A stretch of DNA of 64,000 nucleotides from Escherichia phage A4: the sequence record ON286972. One strand, given 5' to 3'. Below the pieces are notes generated by a model. The model was given only the letters and a program-made list of their open reading frames with translations, did no database searches and was not told where the DNA came from. The translations under genes and the position numbers were made by a program. Shown one piece after another: positions 17,954 through 64,000 of this stretch (the stretch's first letter is position 1; each line of letters opens with the position of its first letter).

Positions 17954-17982
17954 AATAAATCGGTATATCTGTATTTACTAGG

Positions 17983-18010
17983 TAGACAAACTGAAAGAAT
18001 GTGATATAAT
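17983..18010 (+). promoter_or_regulatory. sigma70-like early promoter upstream of clpA
   Basis: TAGACA-N16-TGaTATAAT (extended -10), ~40 nt before the clpA AGGAG/ATG. Confidence 0.5.
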
Positions 18011-18049: not shown

Positions 18050-20335
18050 ATGAATTTAACACAGCTATTCAAAAGCAGCGACGACCTTGCAACCTCTATG
18101 GGTCATACTTTCTTGACAATCGATCACATCAGTGCTACAGTGCTGACAGTGGATAGCATTATTGATGTATTTGGGACAATGAACGTTGACGCAACGAAAG
18201 TGCGTGATCGCTTGATTGAATATCTGAAAAATACCAATGTTCCACACGCACCACGCAGCACTATGGGGGAAGAAGTTAATCGCACTACACTAATCGTCAA
18301 TCGTGTAATGCAAGAACTATCTAAGAAATCTGTCATCGAACAACTCAAACGTGACGATTTCTCAATTGATGCATTCTTTGTACTGTTTGAATGTTTGTCA
18401 TTCCCAAACACTGCATTAGAAGCAGCATTGTTGGAAGAGGGTGTAACTCGTACTGAAGCGGCCCGTACTCTTCAGAAATATGTAGAATCTCTTGATTCTG
18501 AAATTAACCTACAAAGCATCGCTGATGAACCTACTGGGGAGAAAAAGGTGGCTCAACAACAACCTGCATCAAAACAGAAATCAATCGAAGATTACACGAC
18601 CAACCTAACACAGTTGGCTAAAGATGGTAAACTGGACCCAATGATTGGTCGTCAAAAAGAACTGGACGCACTAATTGAAACTCTGGCTCGTAAAACTAAG
18701 AAGAATGCTATTCTGACTGGTGAAGCTGGTGTTGGTAAAACTCAGATTGTTGACGGTCTAGCACAAGCCATTGTTGATGGTAATGTACCAGAACATCTAC
18801 AAAACATTGAGATTTTATCTCTTAACGTTGGTGCACTAACTGCTGGTACTAAGTATCGTGGTGAATTCGAAGAACGTATTGATAATCTTCTCAAAGAACT
18901 GAAGAAACGTGAAAATACAATCGTGTTCATTGACGAAATCCATATCATGGTAGGTGCAGGTTCTGCAAGCAACGGTTCAATGGATATGAGTAACATGTTG
19001 AAACCAGCACTATCTCGTGGTGAGATTCGTGTAATCGGTGCAACTACTTATGATGAATACCGTAAAAACATCGAGAAAGATAGTGCATTGACTCGTCGTT
19101 TCATGAAAATTGACGTAGTTGAGCCAACTATTGAAGAAACTCGTGCGATTGTAAATGGTCTGCAAGGTACATATGAGAAATTCCATAACGTAACTTTCAG
19201 TACTGAAGCAATGGATGCGATTGTGTCTTTGAGTGATAAGTTCCTGAAGAACAAACACTTCCCAGACAAAGCAATCGACCTTATGGATGCAGCAGCAGCT
19301 AAGAAACGTTCACGCGATGAATCTGATAATGTGATTTCACTACGCACAATTCAAGAAGTTGTTGCGGGAATTGCAAACTTGGATATCAACGTAGTAGCTT
19401 GTACTGAAACTGAACGTATGAAGTCACTACCAGCAGCACTTCGTAGCCGTGTATTCGGTCAAGAAGAAGCAGTGGAGAAATTGGTTGATAACGTAATGGT
19501 TGCACGTGCAGGACTTCGTGAGAAAGCAAGTGTTCAGGGTGCATTCATGTTTGTCGGTCCGTCTGGTACTGGTAAAACTGAAATCACTAAAGCACTAGCC
19601 GATGCAATGGGTTCTGAACTGATTCGCTTCGATATGTCTGAATTTTCACAAGAACATACCGTTGCAAAACTAATTGGTTCACCTCCTGGCTATGTTGGTC
19701 ACGATACTGGTAATGGTCTGCTACTCGACAAAATTGAGCAATTCCCGAATGCAGTTCTACTGCTGGACGAAATTGAAAAAGCACACCCTAAAGTACTGCT
19801 AACCTTCCTACAGGTTCTGGATGAAGGTCACCTAACTGGTTCACAGGGTAAAACTGTATACTTTAACAACGTAACAGTTATTATGACAACCAACTTGGGT
19901 GCAGCAGATGCAAATAAACGTAGTCTGGGTTTGAGTGGTGGTGAAACAGCACAGGAGAAGGCAGTGAAAGCTTTCCTACCACCTGAATTCCTAAACCGTA
20001 TCGATAGCATCGTGAAGTTTAATGAGCTATCCAGTGAAGCTATCCAGAGCGTTATTGATAAGTTCATGGCTGGTCTAAATGAGCAAATCAAAGAGCGTGG
20101 CGTGAAAGTAACACTGACTAAAGCGGCACGTGAATGGTTAGAAGCAAATGGTGTTCAGCCTGGAATGGGTGCACGTCCAATGAAACGTACAATCGAGCAG
20201 AACATCCGTGTTCCTCTGGCTAAAGAAATGCTATGCGGTTCACTGGTAAATGGTGGTAACGTAACATTTGATGTGATTAACGGAAAGTTGGGTATCAAAC
20301 CAAAACGTCAAGTTAAAACCCCATCTGTAGTGTAA
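18050..20335 (+). CDS. clpA: ClpA-like AAA+ unfoldase (Hsp100/Clp ATPase, two AAA+ modules)
   Basis: Walker A GEAGVGKTQ and GPSGTGKTE; Walker B IVFIDEIH and LLLDEIEKAH; N-domain present; no ClpB middle coiled coil; LGL tripeptide (KRSLGLSGG) at the ClpP-docking IGL-loop position; reads close to E. coli ClpA along its length. Confidence 0.9.
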   Translation: MNLTQLFKSSDDLATSMGHTFLTIDHISATVLTVDSIIDVFGTMNVDATKVRDRLIEYLKNTNVPHAPRSTMGEEVNRTTLIVNRVMQELSKKSVIEQLKRDDFSIDAFFVLFECLSFPNTALEAALLEEGVTRTEAARTLQKYVESLDSEINLQSIADEPTGEKKVAQQQPASKQKSIEDYTTNLTQLAKDGKLDPMIGRQKELDALIETLARKTKKNAILTGEAGVGKTQIVDGLAQAIVDGNVPEHLQNIEILSLNVGALTAGTKYRGEFEERIDNLLKELKKRENTIVFIDEIHIMVGAGSASNGSMDMSNMLKPALSRGEIRVIGATTYDEYRKNIEKDSALTRRFMKIDVVEPTIEETRAIVNGLQGTYEKFHNVTFSTEAMDAIVSLSDKFLKNKHFPDKAIDLMDAAAAKKRSRDESDNVISLRTIQEVVAGIANLDINVVACTETERMKSLPAALRSRVFGQEEAVEKLVDNVMVARAGLREKASVQGAFMFVGPSGTGKTEITKALADAMGSELIRFDMSEFSQEHTVAKLIGSPPGYVGHDTGNGLLLDKIEQFPNAVLLLDEIEKAHPKVLLTFLQVLDEGHLTGSQGKTVYFNNVTVIMTTNLGAADANKRSLGLSGGETAQEKAVKAFLPPEFLNRIDSIVKFNELSSEAIQSVIDKFMAGLNEQIKERGVKVTLTKAAREWLEANGVQPGMGARPMKRTIEQNIRVPLAKEMLCGSLVNGGNVTFDVINGKLGIKPKRQVKTPSVV

Positions 20336-40822: not shown

Positions 40823-40839
40823 TTGAAGTATTTATAGGT

Positions 40840-40867
40840 GGGACAAAGCTGATTTTAGTGCTATAAT
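40840..40867 (+). promoter_or_regulatory. sigma70-like promoter upstream of gene 55
   Basis: GGGACA-N16-TGcTATAAT. Confidence 0.5.
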
Positions 40868-40919
40868 ATTAGCGATGGCACACGGATTGTGCCTATTGGT
40901 CATTACATGGAGAGTTACA

Positions 40920-41759
40920 ATGATAAACAAGCCGAAGCGTAAGAAGTATCTGAATAACGCAGACTTATTACGTGAAATACATAAAAGTAAGATATCATAC
41001 TGCTGGCTTTTGGATAAAAGTTATGGTATGTATGATTATATTGTGTTTCATGAGTCTGAAATCACAGAAGAATTACTTGAAAAGGCAAAAGCAGCACGAA
41101 TCAAACGTTTGAATAATGAAATGCTTGATAGTGTTCGCGAAAAAGAGAATATGAGTGCTAAGAAAGCAAAGGAATATGCTGATGAGCACGGTCTATTCGT
41201 AAATGATGTACCACTGGATGAAGTGGTGATTAGAGTTATCACTGATGAGCACATTCCACCAGATACACGAGTGAATTTTGAACCATTTAAACATTATATC
41301 GTTGATAATGAAGGTATTCTGTATGAAGTTGTTCGTTCACATTGGAAAGGCGACTTGGAAGATGGCGATTTCTGCTTAACACATGGTAAAATCACAAATG
41401 AACTCGGTAAAATGTTCATTAAACTAGCCGAAGAGATCTCTCACAAATCTAACTACAGAAATTATACGTATTTGGATGAAATGATGGGTGATGCTAGAAT
41501 ACAATTAGTTAAAAATGCACTTCTCTTTAAAGAGAGTATCTTGTATAAGAAAGATAAACCCGCTGTCCAACTAAATCCTTTCTCATACTATACGTCATTC
41601 GTTAACAATAGCTTCCGTTCTATTTTGAACAGTGAGAAGAATGTACGTAACATTCGCGACGACCTTCTTGAGATGCATGGTTTTACACCATCACATACAA
41701 GACAGATTGAAATCGAAATGAATATGATTGAAAGGAAAAATGACGATGGCACTATTTGA
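40920..41759 (+). CDS. gp55: late-transcription sigma factor gp55-like
   Basis: KPKRKKYLNNADLLREI aligns with T4 gp55 KPKYNYVNNKELLQAI, and NPFSYYTSFVNNSFRSILNSEK with [23 protein letters not shown]. Start set at ATG 40920 (GGAGAG Shine-Dalgarno) instead of 40875. ~280 aa versus ~185 in T4. Confidence 0.75.
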   Translation: MINKPKRKKYLNNADLLREIHKSKISYCWLLDKSYGMYDYIVFHESEITEELLEKAKAARIKRLNNEMLDSVREKENMSAKKAKEYADEHGLFVNDVPLDEVVIRVITDEHIPPDTRVNFEPFKHYIVDNEGILYEVVRSHWKGDLEDGDFCLTHGKITNELGKMFIKLAEEISHKSNYRNYTYLDEMMGDARIQLVKNALLFKESILYKKDKPAVQLNPFSYYTSFVNNSFRSILNSEKNVRNIRDDLLEMHGFTPSHTRQIEIEMNMIERKNDDGTI

Positions 41760-42777
41760 TAAAGCAATTACATTCACTGATATTCATTTAGGATTAAAGA
41801 ATAACAGTAAGCAGCACAACGAAGATTGTTTGAACTTCATTAAATTTATGATTGATGAAGCCAAAAAGAAAGGTATTAAAGTATGTGTGTTTATGGGAGA
41901 TTACTTCCATAACCGCAGCAACATTAATATTCAAACATTAAACTATGGTTTACAAATTCTCCAATTACTAAATGACAACTTTGATAAAGTTTACTTCTTA
42001 GTTGGGAACCATGACATGTATCATAAAAACAAACGCGATATTACAAGTATTAATATGGCACAAGTTTATGAAAACATCGAGTTCATTAATGAAATTACTA
42101 CAATCGACGATTGTACTTTCATTCCATTTATGATTGAAGATGAATACAAAATGCTACCTAAATTACAAAGCAAATATGTATTTGGTCATCTTGAATTACC
42201 TGGATATTTGCTTAACAAAATGGTAGAAATGCCAGATCATGGCAAAGAGACTGAAGGTTCTTTTGGTGGTTGTGAGTATGTTTTTAGTGGGCATTTCCAT
42301 AAACGACAATCAAAACTCACATCCAAAGGAACTCGTGTCATTTATACTGGTAACTGTTTCCCTCATAACTTCTCAGACACATGGGATGATGCTAGAGGTG
42401 TTATGATTCTTGAACACGGTTCAGAACCAACATTCAAATCATGGGATGCTGCACCGAAATACAGAACATTTACTTTGTCAGAGCTACTAACTGATCCAAG
42501 TTATTACTTACAAGATAACTCTATCTCGAAAGTTCAGGTTGATATTCCAATCACAACTGATGAGATTAGTTTTATTCGTGATACTTTTACTAAACTTTAT
42601 AATATTCGTGAGTTTAACGTTGTTACAAGTAAACAAAGTATCAAAGAACTTTTGGAAGAAGGTGAACACTTTGAAAGTACTGAATCAGTTGATGAGATAG
42701 TTTTACAACAAATCATGGAAATTGATTCTCCAATGTTCGACAAGAATCTACTAATACAAATCTATAGATCATTATAA
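41746..42777 (+). CDS. gp47: recombination endonuclease subunit gp47 (Mre11/SbcD-like)
   Basis: Metallophosphoesterase motifs FTDIHLG, GDYFHNR, VGNHD, GHFH; start at ATG 41746 after AAGGA; overlaps gene 55 end by 14 nt. Confidence 0.85.
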   Translation: MALFDKAITFTDIHLGLKNNSKQHNEDCLNFIKFMIDEAKKKGIKVCVFMGDYFHNRSNINIQTLNYGLQILQLLNDNFDKVYFLVGNHDMYHKNKRDITSINMAQVYENIEFINEITTIDDCTFIPFMIEDEYKMLPKLQSKYVFGHLELPGYLLNKMVEMPDHGKETEGSFGGCEYVFSGHFHKRQSKLTSKGTRVIYTGNCFPHNFSDTWDDARGVMILEHGSEPTFKSWDAAPKYRTFTLSELLTDPSYYLQDNSISKVQVDIPITTDEISFIRDTFTKLYNIREFNVVTSKQSIKELLEEGEHFESTESVDEIVLQQIMEIDSPMFDKNLLIQIYRSL

Positions 42778-42786
42778 GGGACACGG

Positions 42787-44934
42787 ATGTTAAACATTAC
42801 ACGTATAACAATGAGGAATTTCTTTTCCTTTGGTAATGCACCACAAGTTATTGATTTAAATGGTGCTGACATATCTTTAGTACTCGGTCAAAACAATGAT
42901 GCTGTCATTGAAGGTGGTGATAGTTCTGGTCGTCGTAACGGTGTAGGTAAAAGTGCAATTATTCAAGGTCTTGTTTTTGGACTATTTGGAAAAAGTATTG
43001 GTAACGATATTAAAATTCCAAACTTAGTTAATAAAACAAATGCTAAAAATTGTGAAGTTACCGTTGAGTTCGAGAAAGACGGTATACAATACCTTGTTGA
43101 GCGTGGGCGTAGTCCCACATATTTCAATTTCATCACTCTAGGTCAGGACAATAAAGTTCTCGATGAATCAAGAGGTGAAAAGAAAGATACACAAGAAGAT
43201 CTAAATGAAATTCTCGGAATCTCTCAATTACTTTTTGAGCACATTGTAGTACTGAATGCTAACGTTGAACCTTTCCTTGCTCTTTCTTCACAGAAACAAC
43301 GTGATATGATTGAAGAGCTATTAGGTATTACCCAATTAACAGAGAAAGCTGAACTGTTAAAGGATATGAACAAAGAGTCAAAACGTTTAGCTGACCAAGA
43401 GAAGTTTAAAATTGAAACAGTTGCAGCAAGTAATGAACGCATTCAACGCAGCATTGAAACCTTACAGGAACAGGCTAATAAGTTTGAAATTGATAAGGCT
43501 AATAGAGTGCAAAAACTAAAAAGTGAATTGGAAGTATACAGTACTTTTGTATTTTCTGATTTATATGCTGCTGCTGAAGAGAAAGAAGAAGCACTTCTAC
43601 ACATCTCTAAACGTTTACAACTCGAACGTAGAGTTCAAGAACTTGCAGTGAAATATGATCAGTACGATAGAGAACTAGCCACTAATAAAAATATTATTCA
43701 GCATAGTATCGATAAATTAAAAACTATTGATATTGAATCTGAATTAAAAAACCATGAAGAAATGGAACTGTGGAAACAACTAGAATCTATCTTAAAAGAT
43801 AATCAGTTGCAAAAGAATTTCAAAACACAGAAACTAAATTCACTAAATCTTTCGTTGAATGCTCATATTAAATCTCTTACAGCAGAAGAAGAGAAATTAA
43901 AATCAGTTGAGGATAGTAAATGTCCACTTTGTTTATCAGAGTTGGAGCATAATGAGCATGGTAATGGTATAAAAGATAAGATTAATGATACTATTCGTCT
44001 AATCAGAGAAAATATAAGTAAGGTTGAGTTGGAAATTGCAACACTATCAGATGAAATCAATGCAATTGAGATATTTGATATGCCCCCTAAACCTGTAACT
44101 TTCTATAATACCCTTACCGAAGCCCAAATGCATGACCATAAGCTACAAGAACTTATTAAAAAGAGTGAGGAAGAACAAATTAACATCTACCGTGATGAAC
44201 TAATGTCTTCTTATGAGGCTCTTGATGCATTAGAAGTAAAGGAAGTTCCAGATGCGTTGAATAAATCAGAAGTTAAAGAGTTAGAAATGACTTTTAACTC
44301 ACTTACTCAACAACTTGAACACGAATTGAACACAACTAATACGTTTATTAGTCAGATTAATACTTTAACAACCGATTCGTTGGTTCCTATTGATTATACT
44401 GACTTCAATAACCTTGAAAAATTGGCTAATCACCAAGATTTCTTAGTTAAACTATTGCTCAATAAGGATAGTTATGTTCGTAAACGTATCATTGAACAAA
44501 ATATCTCATATTTGAACTCCAGATTGCAGTATTATATTGATATGTGTGGTTCAGAACACAATGTGGTCTTCTTGAATGACCTTAGTGTTGAGATTGAGAA
44601 GAGTGGGCAGTACTTTGACTATAAACAATTGAGTCGTGGAGAACGAACACGTGTTAATATTGCATTATCATGTGCTTTCCGCGATACTTATGAATCATTA
44701 TATCAAAGTATTAATATTCTTATCATAGATGAGATGATAGATCAGGGTCTTGATTCAAGTGGTGTTCTAAGAGTATGGTCAATCTTCCAGGATATGGCTG
44801 CTGTACGTGGTAAAAACGTATATGCAATATCTCACAGAGAAGAATTACTATCTAAAACAGAAAAAATCCTTAAAGTGGTTAAAGAAGACGGTTTCAGTAC
44901 TGTTGAATATGCTACTCTTGATGATATTTTCTAA
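42787..44934 (+). CDS. gp46: recombination endonuclease ATPase gp46 (Rad50/SbcC-like)
   Basis: Walker A GRRNGVGKSAI, zinc hook CPLC, long coiled coils, signature SRGERTRVNIAL, Walker B ILIIDEMIDQGLD; aligns with T4 gp46. Confidence 0.9.
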   Translation: MLNITRITMRNFFSFGNAPQVIDLNGADISLVLGQNNDAVIEGGDSSGRRNGVGKSAIIQGLVFGLFGKSIGNDIKIPNLVNKTNAKNCEVTVEFEKDGIQYLVERGRSPTYFNFITLGQDNKVLDESRGEKKDTQEDLNEILGISQLLFEHIVVLNANVEPFLALSSQKQRDMIEELLGITQLTEKAELLKDMNKESKRLADQEKFKIETVAASNERIQRSIETLQEQANKFEIDKANRVQKLKSELEVYSTFVFSDLYAAAEEKEEALLHISKRLQLERRVQELAVKYDQYDRELATNKNIIQHSIDKLKTIDIESELKNHEEMELWKQLESILKDNQLQKNFKTQKLNSLNLSLNAHIKSLTAEEEKLKSVEDSKCPLCLSELEHNEHGNGIKDKINDTIRLIRENISKVELEIATLSDEINAIEIFDMPPKPVTFYNTLTEAQMHDHKLQELIKKSEEEQINIYRDELMSSYEALDALEVKEVPDALNKSEVKELEMTFNSLTQQLEHELNTTNTFISQINTLTTDSLVPIDYTDFNNLEKLANHQDFLVKLLLNKDSYVRKRIIEQNISYLNSRLQYYIDMCGSEHNVVFLNDLSVEIEKSGQYFDYKQLSRGERTRVNIALSCAFRDTYESLYQSINILIIDEMIDQGLDSSGVLRVWSIFQDMAAVRGKNVYAISHREELLSKTEKILKVVKEDGFSTVEYATLDDIF

Positions 44935-45446: not shown

Positions 45447-45469
45447 AATGTGCCTTAGATCTAAGTTAG

Positions 45470-45486
45470 TTTATGAAATATTTATG
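45470..45486 (-). promoter_or_regulatory. late-promoter-like motif before the endo VII-like gene
   Basis: Minus-strand CATAAATATTTCATAAA ~25 nt upstream of ATG 45446. Confidence 0.4.
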
Positions 45487-45543
45487 AAATACATTCCTAA
45501 GAAATTTTTAAGTACTTTTTTTATAAAAAAGATTAGATATTTT

Positions 45544-45571
45544 GAGACACTTTTAAATTGCGTGCTATAAT
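45544..45571 (+). promoter_or_regulatory. sigma70-like promoter firing into the ORF-free region
   Basis: GAGACA-N16-TGcTATAAT; same spacing as the clpA and gene 55 promoters. Confidence 0.45.
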
Positions 45572-45577
45572 GTTTCA

Positions 45578-46064
45578 TGTAGTACTGACAATCCTGTTGA
45601 ATGCAGAAATGCATATAAATTAGAACCTAATCCACTCGAAAATGTAGAGGGTAGATGAGCAGTTCAACAGTGCGATGAGCAAAAGAAACCCGTTAGATGT
45701 GGGCATATTATGAACCCCTCACGGCGACACGGCTCAATAAAGAACTCCGATAAGCATACAGAGAGTTCCTCGATAGTTCCTCGATAGATGTATAAGGATC
45801 GCACCTTACCAGATTTGCTAAGGGAGTTTGATGATTCATTTCATTAAACAGCCTGAAGTTTGATTGTATAGACTTTCAGGTGAGTGTCAGGATGTTTAAG
45901 ACTGACGACCGTTGCACATGACTGCGATAGAGAGAAACAGAGCAACCCGCTTTCGTTCTTAATATTTTTACAATATAATTACGTTTAAATTTTAAGAAAT
46001 TCGCAATACAATAATACCGATGCCATCAGCGTCAAGAAACAGAGACTTAATTGTCTCTTTTTTA
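45578..46064 (+). ncRNA. candidate non-coding transcript (promoter to terminator), family unknown
   Basis: Bounded by the promoter at 45544-45571 and the hairpin/T-run at 46041-46064; contains an 8-bp stem-loop (CCTGAAGT...ACTTTCAGG), a tandem 11-bp repeat and only very short ORFs. Confidence 0.3.
46041..46064 (+). terminator. candidate terminator inside the ORF-free region
   Basis: AGAGAC-ttaatt-GTCTCT then TTTTTT. Confidence 0.5.
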
Positions 46065-46149
46065 TTATCTTCATTCCCCTGCGGGGGGATGAAATATCCT
46101 CAACAAATCCCGTCAAGTATTAAATCATTTAAAGTTCTTTATAATTATA

Positions 46150-46245
46150 TTAAAATGAATATGAGTTAACGTAGTTAACGAATATTCTTCAGCTAACGAA
46201 TGAAATGAGTTAGATGAGTTCAATATAAATCAAATGAATTCCTTC
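46150..46245. repeat. cluster of short direct repeats (iteron-like)
   Basis: GTTAACG x2, TAACGAAT x2, ATGAGTT x3 within ~90 bp, followed by an A-tract. Confidence 0.4.
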
Positions 46246-46307
46246 AAGAATAAATCTTTTAAGATCATAATTTCTTTCATCTACTTTGTAAGTAAAAATC
46301 CAAAAAA

Positions 46308-46341
46308 CAAAAACAAAAAAAAACCAGCAACAATGTGCTGG
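46308..46341 (-). terminator. rho-independent terminator
   Basis: Minus-strand CCAGCA...UGCUGG hairpin followed by a run of nine U. Confidence 0.6.
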
Positions 46342-46354
46342 CTTCTTATGAGTA

Positions 46355-46516
46355 TTAGTGCTTCTCGTTCATCTTCTTTACTTTCTTATTGTATGCCTTA
46401 ATAAGCATATCTCTGTCATTTACTGGCATATTAAGTAGAGTTGCATAATCGACATTATCTACATAAACAGCAGCATCCATAAGGGCATTTTTAATATCTG
46501 ATTTATTCAACTCCAT
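46355..46516 (-). CDS. small hypothetical protein (53 aa)
   Basis: Short ORF (MELNKSDIKNALMDAAVYVDNVDYATLL...) between the zinc-ribbon gene and a terminator; weak Shine-Dalgarno; below ORF-track size cut-off. Confidence 0.2.
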   Translation of the reverse strand: MELNKSDIKNALMDAAVYVDNVDYATLLNMPVNDRDMLIKAYNKKVKKMNEKH

Positions 46517-46533
46517 ATCATCCAGAAGTTCTT

Positions 46534-52333: not shown

Positions 52334-52363
52334 AATTTTTTCAGTACTAAATAATATCATACT
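52334..52363 (+). promoter_or_regulatory. conserved 30-nt leader element before the acidic head protein gene
   Basis: AATTTTTTCAGTACTAAATAATATCATACT; near-identical to 55102-55133. Confidence 0.45.
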
Positions 52364-53918: not shown

Positions 53919-53958
53919 TTGAAGTACAGATATTTCAGTACTTAAAGGAGAGAACAGA

Positions 53959-55101: not shown

Positions 55102-55133
55102 AATTTTTTCAGTACCATAAATAATAACATACT
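55102..55133 (+). promoter_or_regulatory. conserved leader element before major capsid gene
   Basis: AATTTTTTCAGTACCATAAATAATAACATACT containing CATAAATA. Confidence 0.5.
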
Positions 55134-56398: not shown

Positions 56399-56474
56399 CA
56401 GAAAAAAAGCTTGACAAGTAGATTTTAATTATATATAATTACCACATACCAAAAATCACAAAGAGACAAATAAA

Positions 56475-57581
56475 ATGCCAAAAGTAAGTATCGACAAAGA
56501 AAAATTCATTGAAGAGATGAACAACAAGTATGGAGCATATGGTGAATTTGATTTCAGCACTTTAGTATTCAAAGCCAGTAAGACAACAGTTAAATGTAAT
56601 AAATGCGGAAAAGAAAATACTAAACCTGCACTACGTCACATTTCATGTACATGTTCTTCATGTTATTCAAACATGTCACAGCGTTCGAACAACGAAAAAT
56701 TTATCAGCACGGTAGAAACTAAATTTGGAAAAGATAAATTCAAATTTGATAAACTAAATTACATTAACGCTATAACAAAAGTAACAATACTCTGTACAGA
56801 CGAAGAACATAACGATTACTTTGAAATTACACCAAACAAATTTCTTACTGGTAAGGGATGTCCTATATGTAATAAAAATGAAGCATACAGTACTGAAGAA
56901 TTCGTAGAAAAAGTAAAAGAAAATTATGGTGATTCATTAGATTTAACTAACACAGTATATGTAAATCAAAAAACTAAAGTAACTGTGTATTGTAAAGCGG
57001 GTAACCATGAATGGACAGTTGATCCGAAAACTTTACTTGTTGGTAAGACTGGTTGTGGTACATGCTCCGGTAAAGGTGGTCGCAGTACTGAACGTTTCAT
57101 TGAACTGGTATCACCTATCCATAACCATAAGTATGATTATAGTTTGGTTGAATATACTATAAGCGAGAATTATGTTGATATTGTATGTCCAACTCATGGT
57201 GTTTTCTCCCAACAACCAAAAGCACATATGGCTGGTAAAGGATGCCCATCATGTGGTGAATATGGATATCAGCCATCAAAACCTGGATATTTCTATGTTC
57301 AAAAACTAACTAATAAAGATAAGACAGTGTACAAGTATGGAATCACTGGCGATATGAAACGCCGTGTAAATGAGCAAAGTCGTCATTCTGATTTTGAACA
57401 CACTGTACTGGTAGAACGTTACTTTGAAGATGGTCATAAACCCTTAGTACTGGAAAAGTTTTTGAAACAATACATTGATAGTGGTGTAGTAACTACTGAA
57501 GAGTTGCCATCAGGATTCACAGAAACTTTTGATGCTAAGTATCTTGAAACAGTACTGGAGATTGTAAATACATTTGAATAA
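56475..57581 (+). CDS. zinc-ribbon repeat protein with C-terminal GIY-YIG-superfamily-like domain (putative free-standing endonuclease)
   Basis: Four ~60-aa modules each ending in a Cys pair (CNKCGKEN / GKGCPICN / GCGTCSG / GKGCPSCG), then GYFYVQKL...YKYGITGDMKRRVNEQSRH; motif reading only. Confidence 0.45.
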   Translation: MPKVSIDKEKFIEEMNNKYGAYGEFDFSTLVFKASKTTVKCNKCGKENTKPALRHISCTCSSCYSNMSQRSNNEKFISTVETKFGKDKFKFDKLNYINAITKVTILCTDEEHNDYFEITPNKFLTGKGCPICNKNEAYSTEEFVEKVKENYGDSLDLTNTVYVNQKTKVTVYCKAGNHEWTVDPKTLLVGKTGCGTCSGKGGRSTERFIELVSPIHNHKYDYSLVEYTISENYVDIVCPTHGVFSQQPKAHMAGKGCPSCGEYGYQPSKPGYFYVQKLTNKDKTVYKYGITGDMKRRVNEQSRHSDFEHTVLVERYFEDGHKPLVLEKFLKQYIDSGVVTTEELPSGFTETFDAKYLETVLEIVNTFE

Positions 57582-61103: not shown

Positions 61104-61110
61104 AATTTTT

Positions 61111-61138
61111 GGGACACATTGAGAAGTACTGATATAAT
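61111..61138 (+). promoter_or_regulatory. sigma70-like promoter upstream of the polymerase block
   Basis: GGGACA-N16-TGaTATAAT. Confidence 0.45.
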
Positions 61139-61205
61139 AGAGACATTCCACGAGGAACATTGTGGAGTGTCTATTTTTTTTTCATTAACACATGGAGATA
61201 CAACA

Positions 61206-61508
61206 ATGGCTAAGTCTAAAAAAGAAGCAAAAGTAGAAATTCGTGACCTAAACGACGAACAACGTAAACGTCTAAGTGATGGTCTAAACAATGCAGTGGT
61301 ACAGCTAACCTTTATTGATGATACCAAAGCTTCCTATACTGATTTCATCAACTCTCTTTCTGATGAGCTAGGTATTGATGCATCCGATATCAAACAAGCT
61401 GCACAACGCATTTACAAAGGCGATTACTTTGATAAGCAAAACAAACTAGACAACATCGAAACTATCCTAAGCGTAACTAATAATCTACCACAAGCTGATG
61501 ATTATTAA
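61206..61508 (+). CDS. hypothetical small protein
   Basis: Start at ATG 61206 after GGAG; early-type promoter (GGGACA-N16-TGaTATAAT) just upstream. Confidence 0.35.
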   Translation: MAKSKKEAKVEIRDLNDEQRKRLSDGLNNAVVQLTFIDDTKASYTDFINSLSDELGIDASDIKQAAQRIYKGDYFDKQNKLDNIETILSVTNNLPQADDY

Positions 61509-61535
61509 TCAGTACTGAATACTTAAAAATTTATG

Positions 61536-61563
61536 AGCCTCCAATGTTGGGGGCTTTTATTTT
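61536..61563 (+). terminator. rho-independent terminator before the polymerase gene
   Basis: AGCCTCC-aatgtt-GGGGGCT then TTTTATTTT. Confidence 0.55.
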
Positions 61564-61593
61564 AACTTAATACAATGTAAAGGAATACAATAG

Positions 61594-64000
61594 ATGTATA
61601 TCGATGCTTATATGGAACGTAAACGTACTGGTGATATTCTTCATGTAGTTGAACGTAAAAACGGGAAGCGTATTCTCCGTGAACTGGAGCCAGTATTTGA
61701 GTATTATGTAGAATCACCATTAGGTACACACAAAACTGTATATGGTACAATGGCACAACATCTTGAGTTTTCTTCACAGGCTCAAATGAATAAAAGCGTA
61801 GAGCAACACAAAAGTGAAGGTCTACGAATTTTTGAAAGTGATTGTAACATTACGTTTAAAACGTTAGCGAAAGAGTACATGGGTAAGGGTTCTCCTGACC
61901 TTAACATTGCATTCTTCGATATCGAAACAGACTTCCATAAGAAGTTTGGGTATGCACCACCATCAGACCCGTTCAACCGTGTAACTGCAATTTCTTTGTA
62001 TCAATCATGGACTGGTAAGGATTATGTTTTAACACTTCCTCCAGTTGACATGGAAATTTACGAAGCACAAGACATTGTTCGACGTTTGAACGAAGAGACA
62101 AATGATCCTAACAGTACTGTCATCCTTTATACGGATGAAAAAGAAATGTTTATGGAATTCTTTAGTCTTATTGATGATTCTGATGTATTATCAGGGTGGA
62201 ATAGTGAGTTCTTTGATATTCCATACATGATTAACCGCACAAAGAAAATCTTCAATGAAGCAACCACTGCTCGTTGGTGCTTGTGGAATAAGAAGCCTAG
62301 TGCTCGTGAAGCAGATAACTTTGGTAAAACTGTAGTAACCTATGATTTAGTTGGTCGTGTTCACTTAGATTATCTTGCTCTTTATAAGAAACATGCTGGT
62401 CAAGTTGAACAATCATATAAACTAGATTACATTGCAGAGAAAGTAACTAAAGAGAATAAAGTATCTTATGAAGGTTCTTTGGATAAACTATATCGTGAAG
62501 ATTACATTACCTTCTTGCGTTATTCTAAGCAGGATAGTATTCTTCTGAAGAAAATTGATGCTGTATGTGACTTTATCAACCTGCACAACCGTCTTGCTCA
62601 TAAAGAGTGTGTACTAATTAGTACTACAATGGGTTCGGTAGCTCTGATTGATACTGCAATTATTAACCTTGCACATAGTCGTGGTGAAGTGGTATTCAAC
62701 AAAGCACCTAAAGATGATTTTGAAGTTGATTATGAAACAGAATCATATGAAGATGAAGATGATGAAGCAGATGAGAAAATTAGTGCTAAAGCTGCTGGTG
62801 CATGGGTACAAGATCCAGTACTAGGTTTGGTGAGTGATTTGGGATGTACTGACTTTAACTCACTGTATCCAACTGTACTTCGTACACTTGGTATGAGTAC
62901 TGAATGCATTCTTGGTCAACTTCGTCAGGATTACACTGATGCGTATCTTGCTGCTAAAATTCAAGAGCAAAAGGCCAAATCCAAATCGAAATCATTCGAA
63001 CCAGACTGGACTGCTGCATGGCATGGTTTGTTTGCTGCTGTTGAGTTTACAATGGTTCATGAGAAATCAGATCAAACGATCATTGTTGATTTGGAAGATG
63101 GAAGTTCTTTCCAGGCGACAGGTAAAGAGTTGTATGATATAATCTTTGCCGAGGACAGTACTATTGTTCTAAGTGCTAACGGAACACTATTTGACAAGTC
63201 TAAGTATGGTGTAATTCCAGACATTCTAACTCAATGGTATTCTGAACGTAAAGCACAACAAAAGATGGTAATTGATTACAAACACATGTATAGTGATGGT
63301 TGGGAATTTAATGGTCATGAGAAAGTTGAACCACTTCTATCCAACTATACTCCTGGTACAATGTTCCGCACCAACTTACATGAAAATGATCCTGTTTATC
63401 TATTGCGTATTGCAATTGGTAAAGGTCAATGGGAAGATGTAGCTAAACTAATTGTTGAAAATGGTTTAGAACTAAAAGACGGAAGAATTTTCTGTTCTAA
63501 AGAAGATAAAGCATATTTCAAACAACAAAGTGCATTCTGGAAACAGAACCAGCAGATTCGTAAGATTCTTCTAAACAGTCTATATGGTGCACTATTGAAC
63601 AAAGGTTCACGTTTCTTTGATAAGCGTTTGGGTCAGTCTGTTACCTTAACTGGTCGTTCTATGACTAAACACATGGCGAGTCGTATCAATGAAATTACAA
63701 CTGGTGTTTACAATCACCAGGGTGGTTCTGTAATTTATGGCGATACTGACTCCGTATACTTCAGTGTAACCCATTACTTGAAAGAACAAGGTATTCCGTA
63801 CAATCTATCTAAAGAAGAAATTGTTGATATGTACATTAAAATTGGTGATGAAGTTGGTGAGTCCTTCCCATCTTTTATGCATCAGATGTTCAACACTGGA
63901 ATTGAGAAAGGTAAGATTGTAGGTGCTGACCTTGAGATGGTAGGTTCTCGTGGATTGTTCCTGAAGAAGAAACGTTATGCAATTCTGAAGTACTGGGAAG
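61594..64000 (+). CDS. gp43: DNA polymerase gp43 (family B), partial, 3' end beyond window
   Basis: Exo I FFDIETDF, Exo II SGWNSEFFDIPYM, motif A CTDFNSLYPT, motif B KILLNSLYG, motif C YGDTDS; aligns with T4 gp43. Confidence 0.95.
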   Translation, partial: MYIDAYMERKRTGDILHVVERKNGKRILRELEPVFEYYVESPLGTHKTVYGTMAQHLEFSSQAQMNKSVEQHKSEGLRIFESDCNITFKTLAKEYMGKGSPDLNIAFFDIETDFHKKFGYAPPSDPFNRVTAISLYQSWTGKDYVLTLPPVDMEIYEAQDIVRRLNEETNDPNSTVILYTDEKEMFMEFFSLIDDSDVLSGWNSEFFDIPYMINRTKKIFNEATTARWCLWNKKPSAREADNFGKTVVTYDLVGRVHLDYLALYKKHAGQVEQSYKLDYIAEKVTKENKVSYEGSLDKLYREDYITFLRYSKQDSILLKKIDAVCDFINLHNRLAHKECVLISTTMGSVALIDTAIINLAHSRGEVVFNKAPKDDFEVDYETESYEDEDDEADEKISAKAAGAWVQDPVLGLVSDLGCTDFNSLYPTVLRTLGMSTECILGQLRQDYTDAYLAAKIQEQKAKSKSKSFEPDWTAAWHGLFAAVEFTMVHEKSDQTIIVDLEDGSSFQATGKELYDIIFAEDSTIVLSANGTLFDKSKYGVIPDILTQWYSERKAQQKMVIDYKHMYSDGWEFNGHEKVEPLLSNYTPGTMFRTNLHENDPVYLLRIAIGKGQWEDVAKLIVENGLELKDGRIFCSKEDKAYFKQQSAFWKQNQQIRKILLNSLYGALLNKGSRFFDKRLGQSVTLTGRSMTKHMASRINEITTGVYNHQGGSVIYGDTDSVYFSVTHYLKEQGIPYNLSKEEIVDMYIKIGDEVGESFPSFMHQMFNTGIEKGKIVGADLEMVGSRGLFLKKKRYAILKYWE

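Follow-up and report, generated by a model that had tools for sequence, protein, structure and literature searches.

Four promoter sites of Escherichia phage A4 belong to a class predicted in the related jumbo phages CBB and GAP32

Four intergenic sites in a 64,000-nucleotide stretch of Escherichia phage A4 (sequence record ON286972; 'the window' below is this whole stretch) are new members of a promoter class that had already been predicted in two relatives, CBB and GAP32. The sites are non-random and orthologous to sites in CBB; they are kept throughout the clade and, within lineages, evolve in a concerted way. We judge it somewhat better than an even bet (a probability of about 0.55) that the class is private to Rak2-like phages and is read by a phage factor, most likely the RpoD-like sigma of these phages.

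The class in phage A4 and in its relatives

The window belongs to a Rak2/121Q-like jumbo myovirus. A 10-kb piece of it matched 56 phage records, all of them Rak2/121Q-like jumbo myoviruses (top identity ~80%), with hosts in Escherichia, Salmonella, Klebsiella, Erwinia, Yersinia, Cronobacter and Serratia. The gene order of the window is the same as in 121Q, CBB, GAP32, RaK2, Munch, EJP2, Serratia BF, XaC1, XbC2 and fENko-Kae01.

A sequence-only reading of this DNA had proposed that four promoters share an unusual GACA-N16-TATAAT architecture and form a defined early or middle class, possibly dependent on a phage activator as T4 middle promoters depend on MotA. All four were located exactly where that reading had placed them, in intergenic DNA, on the + strand and pointing into + strand genes (Table 1). 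The pattern is indeed enriched in the window, with five matches on both strands against 0.43 expected, and five or more in 0 of 100 shuffles. The downstream features were also as described, namely a ClpA-like gene, a gp55-like gene, an ORF-free stretch, and a 100-aa gene followed by a family B DNA polymerase. The extended -10, TGnTATAAT, had been credited to only three of the sites; it is present in all four. The fifth match, at 34017-33992 (-), we take as probably a chance one, as it has the box GGCGACA and no TG; the stop codon of a gp25-like ORF shares bases with its TATAAT, and a terminator comes directly after. A generic sigma-70 consensus scan of the window showed no enrichment (67 matches against 74 expected), which makes the signal specific to the GACA-N16-TATAAT pattern; TGNTATAAT alone occurs 14 times against 7.4 expected, about a 2-fold excess.

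Table 1. Positions of the promoters and associated features. Positions refer to the window, except in the last two rows, where they refer to locus extracts
Feature	Position	Strand	Details
Class promoter 1, before ClpA-like gene	17982..18010	+	variant GTAGAC(A), 14 bp, TGATATAAT; GACA 17985-17988, TG 18002-18003, TATAAT 18005-18010
ClpA-like AAA+ ATPase gene	18050..20335	+	Pfam AAA_2, AAA, ClpB_D2-small
Class promoter 2, before gene 55-47-46	40839..40867	+	TGGGAC(A), 14 bp, TGCTATAAT; GGGACA 40840-40845, TG 40859-40860, TATAAT 40862-40867
Gene 55 5' UTR hairpin	40877..40893	+	GGCACA-cggat-TGTGCC
Promoter 2 operon	40920..44934	+	gp55-like, gp47-like, gp46-like; relatives' annotation
gp55-like late sigma	40920-41759	+	PHROG 12791, E 1e-151
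gp47-like and gp46-like genes	41728-42777 and 42787-44934	+	Pfam Metallophos, AAA_23, SMC_N
ORF-free stretch containing promoter 3	45447-46533		
Class promoter 3, into ORF-free region	45543..45571	+	TGAGAC(A), 14 bp, TGCTATAAT; GAGACA 45544-45549, TATAAT 45566-45571
Structured non-coding RNA (~490 nt), predicted product of promoter 3	45578..46064	+	alignments A2, A3
Perfect TTGACA-N17-TATAAT before endonuclease-like gene	56411..56439	+	no TG; not a class member
Endonuclease-like gene	56475-57581		Pfam hints of zinc-finger, T5orf172
Class promoter 4, before 100-aa gene	61110..61138	+	TGGGAC(A), 14 bp, TGATATAAT; GGGACA 61111-61116, TATAAT 61133-61138
Hairpin at promoter 4	61141..61182	+	13-bp stem + T9, 3 nt after the -10
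Promoter 4 genes	61206..64000	+	100-aa gene, terminator-like hairpin, DNA polymerase
100-aa conserved protein gene	61206-61508	+	
Terminator-like hairpin between 100-aa gene and polymerase	61535-61556		
Family B DNA polymerase	61594 to past window end	+	
Inverted repeats at clamp-like gene promoters of relatives	L002:47684-47730, L007:48427-48470, L010:49037-49080, L008:47097-47140, L005		outside the window
RNA paralogues	L021:2947-3442, L017:~1410-1754, L020:1429-1868		

The GACA-N16 architecture is, however, a local reading of a wider element. In three of the four sites a TGG/A box lies 17 bp from the -10 (TGGGAC, TGAGAC and TGGGAC), and the clpA site has GTAGAC. Since the window boxes stand at N17, GACA-N16 is the TGRRAC-N17 element read two bases further right. 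The element found throughout the clade consists of TGRRAC, 14 bp and TGnTATAAT, and TGRRAC with 17 bp to the -10 had already been published (PMC5259590). The likeness of the A4 sites to TTGACA is 4-5 of 6 positions in the N16 or N18 registers and 2-3 of 6 at N17.

Three promoter types had been predicted in CBB by Buttimer et al. 2017 using MEME (PMC5259590, Table S6). One is a consensus TTGACA-N17-TATAAT with an UP-like element, found mostly in the putative early region; another, of the form ATAAATA, is late. The remaining type, a 'divergent RpoD-like' Promoter 1 with TGAAACG...(A/G)TGnTATAAT and a TGRAAC-N17-TATAAT geometry, has 18 sites, 11 of them before DNA-synthesis genes and one before gp55, and is said to be present also in GAP32 (PMC5259590). 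Promoter 1 of CBB and GAP32 resembles the A4 sites in having TGRRAC, 17 bp and a TATAAT preceded by TG, and in CBB it stands, as in A4, before clpA, gp55, the small gene 5' of the DNA polymerase and DNA-metabolism genes. The boxes differ in that A4 has TG(A/G)GAC(A), which mimics xxGACA, against TGAAACG in CBB; the A4 clpA site is a GTAGACA variant. A promoter of an ORF-free region is absent from the CBB list because only gene-upstream DNA was searched there, and the CBB class is itself a MEME prediction. In the literature searched we found no published transcript or transcription-start data for members of the Rak2-like clade, and no relevant promoter analysis in the papers on RaK2, fEgEco12, Sharanji and N1M2.

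At least ten related genomes carry the class at orthologous positions, without exception on the gene strand, so that the four sites do form a defined class, as had been proposed. Ten syntenic loci of 50-64 kb each together gave 29 matches to TGRRAC-N14-TGNTATAAT, against 0.05 expected; all were on the gene strand and 0 on the opposite one. Sites 1, 2 and 4 of A4 are the positional orthologues of Porf_235, Porf_244 and Porf_262 of CBB, and site 3 has its orthologue at about 174,388-174,416 of CBB, unlisted by the CBB authors. For promoter 1 we found orthologues in 121Q, with the same variant box, and in EJP2, CBB, GAP32, BF and XbC2, with the canonical box; promoter 2 is kept in nine of ten relatives; promoter 3 has orthologues in 121Q, EJP2, Kae01, CBB, GAP32, BF, XbC2 and XaC1; and promoter 4 is kept in all relatives examined. 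This positional orthology persists even though the flanking DNA is only 66-70% identical between genomes. A search of IMG/VR with TGRGACA-N13-TGNTATAAT gave, among the matches listed, mostly single chance matches and at least five in a 121Q contig; the A4 genome was absent among the matches listed.

Lineage-specific versions and the candidate reader

Our scans covered 100-150 kb in EJP2, Kae01 and XaC1 each, and 50 kb in the other relatives. EJP2 has 12 sites, mostly TGAGAC(A) with mostly TGA-TATAAT, and the gap is 17 bp in all of them. The Munch-like fENko-Kae01 has 14, mostly TGGGAC(A) with TGn-TATAAT, and a gap of 18 bp in 11. CBB, GAP32, BF and XbC2 carry 6 each in 50 kb, with TG(A/G)AAC(G), a gap of 17 bp and TGn-TATAAT. 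In XaC1, all 19 sites have TATACT, 17 bp from TGAAA(C/T), and TTC/TCC replaces TGn at 18 of them. RaK2 has a TTGAAC-like box, a gap of 17-18 bp and a TATAAT-like hexamer. Within a genome, the sites are paralogues of one another that had already separated in the common ancestor; changes common to them are thus concerted. Part of this concerted evolution may stem from recombination between the repeated promoter cassettes, a process suggested for the composite promoter/terminator cassettes (PeSLs) of T4-like phages (PMC4122927), and not from co-evolution with a reader. In XaC1, TGAAAC-N17-TATACT was also seen in a tRNA/small-ORF region (L169:6945, 9191, 16639 and 29376), once directly before tRNA-Ser, which shows that the class is not confined to replication genes.

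The versions are not distributed by host: they differ between XaC1 and XbC2, for both of which Xanthomonas vesicatoria is the reported host, and EJP2, Kae01 and CBB all infect Enterobacterales yet differ as well. The DNA-binding regions of sigma-70 are essentially identical across Enterobacterales. Versions that are fixed per lineage, and that differ on one host species, point to a phage-encoded reader. Clear TTGACA promoters were too few in 50 kb of XaC1 for their -10 to be compared with TATACT.

The best candidate for this reader appears to be a fast-evolving RpoD-like sigma of the phage. Such a protein, with regions 2 and 3 (Pfam), is encoded by every relative and is 33-45% identical between genera; these comparisons concern the relatives, the A4 sigma gene being outside the 64-kb window. 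The sigmas of CBB and XbC2, the latter with CBB-version promoters, share 73% identity. When the proteins are tentatively aligned, the presumed helix of region 4.2 reads SK(A/P)TLSRRY in CBB and XaC1, where the box is TGAAAC, and SR(S/T)S(I/L)HR(K/C)Y in 121Q and Munch, where the box is TGRGAC, its placement resting on an alignment of ~20% identity to E. coli sigma-70. The Munch sigma has the 121Q-like helix despite being 45% identical to that of CBB and 38% to that of 121Q. RaK2, however, breaks the correlation: its helix is of the R..H kind, yet its box is TTGAAC. The residue opposite E. coli E458 is N in XaC1, where the TG is lost, and V in the others. We regard these correlations between sigma helix and promoter box as suggestive.

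Chance likeness among four A/T-rich intergenic stretches, with no shared function, is effectively refuted: in a genome of 33-41% G+C, TATAAT-like strings are common, and TGNTATAAT alone is only about 2-fold enriched, but the full pattern (5 against 0.43 in the window; 29 against 0.05 pooled, and only on the gene strand) and the positional orthology stand against it. It is also conceivable, though we consider it somewhat unlikely, that the sites are ordinary host sigma-70 extended -10 promoters, firing from the start of infection without a phage factor, whose box is a suboptimal -35 kept for strength. TGnTATAAT, perfect at all four sites, is a perfect host sigma-70 extended -10, with which a -35 is dispensable. 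The box, moreover, also passes for a partial -35, either as xxGACA at N16 or as tTGRGA at N18 (4-5 of 6 matches to TTGACA), and in Munch and Kae01 GACA lies 17 bp from the -10, which is the sigma-70 optimum. PA5oct, a distant relative, depends on the host polymerase, and its mapped promoters are of the form TTGAC/TATAATA (PMC7318152). CBB, however, has a separate and sharp cTTGACa-N17 class concentrated in its putative early region. Furthermore, the box never drifts toward TTGACA and is fixed differently in each lineage, and phages whose hosts have the same sigma-70 carry different versions, two phages on one host species differing even in the -10.

T4 middle promoters combine a MotA box with a sigma-70 -10, and are used through appropriation of sigma by AsiA and MotA. 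A similar arrangement here, in which an AsiA-like protein would remodel region 4 of sigma-70, a MotA-like protein would bind TGRRAC and host sigma-70 would read the -10, seems to us improbable. The -10 does remain sigma-70-like, the genes served in the relatives match the T4 middle regulon (55, 46/47, polymerase, clamp, topoisomerase and ribonucleotide reductase), and a small HTH regulator adjoins the sigma gene in CBB. Yet the box occupies -35 to -30, 17 bp from the -10, whereas the MotA box is centred at -30, and in XaC1 the -10 hexamer and the TG also change in concert, which an upstream activator would not explain. The MotA box, (a/t)(a/t)(a/t)TGCTTtA at 11-13 bp 5' of TAnnnT, is matched 0 times in the window, where shuffles give 1.06, TGCTT is absent from the four A4 sites, and no MotA or AsiA homologue was found among the A4 window proteins scanned. 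The proposal of a phage factor probably holds, because box, spacing and -10 change together per lineage and not by host, whereas its analogy with MotA, for want of a MotA box, does not.

Genes and RNA elements downstream of the promoters

The class heads genes of replication, recombination and nucleotide metabolism, gene 55, the ClpA-like gene and a multi-copy structured RNA. In the gene 55-47-46 operon the PHROG matches were 12791/234. A hairpin in the leader of gene 55 has five pairs, three of them with compensatory changes, and its loop, A(A/C)GGAT, is kept in nine of ten genomes; a role as translational operator or as stabiliser is possible. The hairpin lies ~25 nt upstream of the Shine-Dalgarno sequence. 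The longest ORF for gene 55 begins within this hairpin, at 40875; a conserved Shine-Dalgarno sequence with its ATG is found at 40920. The annotation of gene 55 in fEgEco12 (L001:5944) has an over-long start that takes in the leader.

T4-type late motifs on the - strand adjoin the class box back to back at 40829-40836 and 17971-17978 (TATAAATA and GTAAATAC, respectively), where they serve divergent structural genes. The layout is kept in relatives, with 'gtatttat' immediately 5' of the class box. Elsewhere in the window TTTTTTCAGTAC stands directly 5' of the late-type (A)TAAATA before head genes, at 52336-52347, 55104-55115 and 53932-53941 (+) and in the 33925 region (-).

At promoter 4, the -10 is followed within 1-4 nt by a strong hairpin and T-run in all ten genomes (locus extracts L002-L010 and L016), the stem sequences being unrelated. 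The predicted start of promoter 4 lies within the 5' arm of this stem. The full stem has -17 to -20 kcal/mol, of which -5.7 to -12 would remain in a transcript begun 7 nt past the -10; a transcript from the predicted +1 retains only about half of the stem energy. The hairpin would thus be a terminator for upstream tail-fibre (late) transcripts, which the transcripts of promoter 4 itself would escape. Composite promoter/terminator cassettes are known as the PeSLs of T4-like phages (Arbiol 2010, PMC2839356; Comeau 2014, PMC4122927). The element at 61110-61182 and its orthologues resemble PeSLs in that promoter and stem-loop terminator are fused in one short motif; they differ in the position of the hairpin, so close to the -10 that the predicted start falls inside the stem. 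The 100-aa protein encoded downstream, whose gene has a promoter and a terminator to itself, gave a match to PHROG 639 'transcriptional regulator' (E 5e-8); we found no Pfam relative for it, and a PDB sequence search gave no meaningful one.

In relatives, the class promoter of a clamp-like gene has its -10 bracketed by an inverted repeat, the arms of which covary between genomes; one arm overlaps box and spacer, and the other begins right after TATAAT. After the capsid gene, CBB, GAP32 and BF have a class promoter and a different gene where A4 has the endonuclease-like gene, which is preceded by a host-type promoter. This suggests that the endonuclease-like gene is an inserted mobile gene that brought its own promoter.

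The ORF-free stretch entered by promoter 3 contains what we predict to be a structured non-coding RNA. The ~490 nt after 45571 are conserved across genera above the flanking coding DNA, and show no three-base periodicity. RNAalifold gave 72 pairs in 14 helices, 41 of the pairs with compensatory change. Paired cells amount to 94.3%, against 35-43% in slid-partner controls, and the covariation score of 0.416 (at most 0.081 in slid controls) was reached by 0 of 500 shuffles. The 3' end is a covarying hairpin at 46041-46058 with a T-run, to 46064. Conservation runs about 100-250 nt past this hairpin, and a second conserved hairpin, CATTCCCC-tgcg-GGGGGATG, lies at ~46070-46130 (+), followed by the block CCTCAACAAATCyCGTCAAG; hairpin and block were seen in all copies, including that of RaK2. 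The RNA may be longer than 490 nt, or the second hairpin may be a separate element. The A4 copy contains a 12-nt tandem duplication, GTTCCTCGATAG twice at 45765-45788 (+), absent from all aligned relatives.

The RNA is present in 4-5 copies per genome in 71 records, all of the Rak2-like clade. Further copies, each with a class promoter, lie in an ORF-free gap at 258 kb of CBB and, in 121Q and RaK2, directly downstream of the sigma gene. In IMG/VR, the core motif was found only in contigs of 345-378 kb or fragments of them, and in about 20 of 27 RNA copies the motif is preceded, at a distance of 346-418 nt, by a class promoter. Rfam 15 gave no match at the gathering score, and nothing relevant at E<=5 for the window or E<=1 for three paralogues; weak matches to the region were terminator look-alikes on the minus strand. 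A tRNA/tmRNA scan of the ORF-free region was negative, nhmmer showed no homology to the RNA-seq-defined ncRNA001/002 of PA5oct, and we found no annotation, Rfam model or paper describing the RNA in the literature searched. Possible roles are those of an origin or primer RNA and of a host-factor decoy.

Place of the class in the phage programme

By the genes they serve (the ClpA-like gene, 55-47-46 and the small gene before the polymerase), the A4 sites, if they are active promoters as we infer, would have middle timing. The 'early' label given to them previously is unlikely, as the genes concerned are those of replication, recombination and the late sigma, and the putative early region of CBB is dominated by the consensus TTGACA class. 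The class may be described, by its gene content, as the functional counterpart of the T4 middle regulon. T4 middle promoters likewise serve gene 55, 46/47 and replication proteins; they have a sigma-70-type -10, often with TG, and a phage-specific upstream element in place of the canonical -35. Unlike them, the class has no TGCTTtA and its -10 co-varies by lineage, as in XaC1; in addition, Rak2-like phages carry a full RpoD-like sigma, which T4 does not. Extended -10 promoters of E. coli and T4 early promoters share with the class TGnTATAAT, a weak or partial -35 and a spacer of 16-18 bp. In the class, however, each genome keeps to a fixed upstream element, and the variation between lineages is independent of the host, which is unexpected of a merely degenerate -35.

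A possible route of transcription is as follows. The promoters would present TGRRAC at about -35 to -30 (TG[A/G]GACA in A4), a 14-bp A/T-rich spacer and TGnTATAAT; the host RNA polymerase core would be brought to them through contact of a sigma-70-family protein with the extended -10, and the lineage-specific box would be read by a phage-encoded specificity factor. This factor, the RpoD-like sigma, would itself be expressed early, from promoters of the TTGACA consensus; the CBB sigma gene sits in a region dominated by such promoters. The resulting cascade would run from host sigma-70 to the phage RpoD-like sigma and then to gp55. Sigma-70-family factors of phages are known to serve middle or late promoters in the case of gp28 of Bacillus phage SPO1 and the sigmas of phiEco32 and 7-11 (PMC8948821). 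The logic proposed here is the same, in that an early-made sigma redirects the host core to a phage-specific consensus; the -10 of the class nevertheless remains host-like, unlike in those phages, and the pairing of sigma and promoter is here proposed from sequence. More tentatively, the A4 sites may be the DNA half of a phage-private system in which RpoD-like sigma and promoter co-evolve in each lineage, and which also drives the structured RNA.

Rak2/121Q-like jumbo phages are under characterisation for therapy, and recognition of the class makes it possible to chart, for any genome of the clade, what is probably its middle regulon. Gene starts are corrected as well, such as that of gene 55, which is annotated overlong in some relatives, and a class promoter led to a conserved multi-copy structured RNA that is absent from Rfam. 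The lineage versions, finally, may offer natural matched promoter/sigma pairs for the study of phage sigma-promoter co-evolution.
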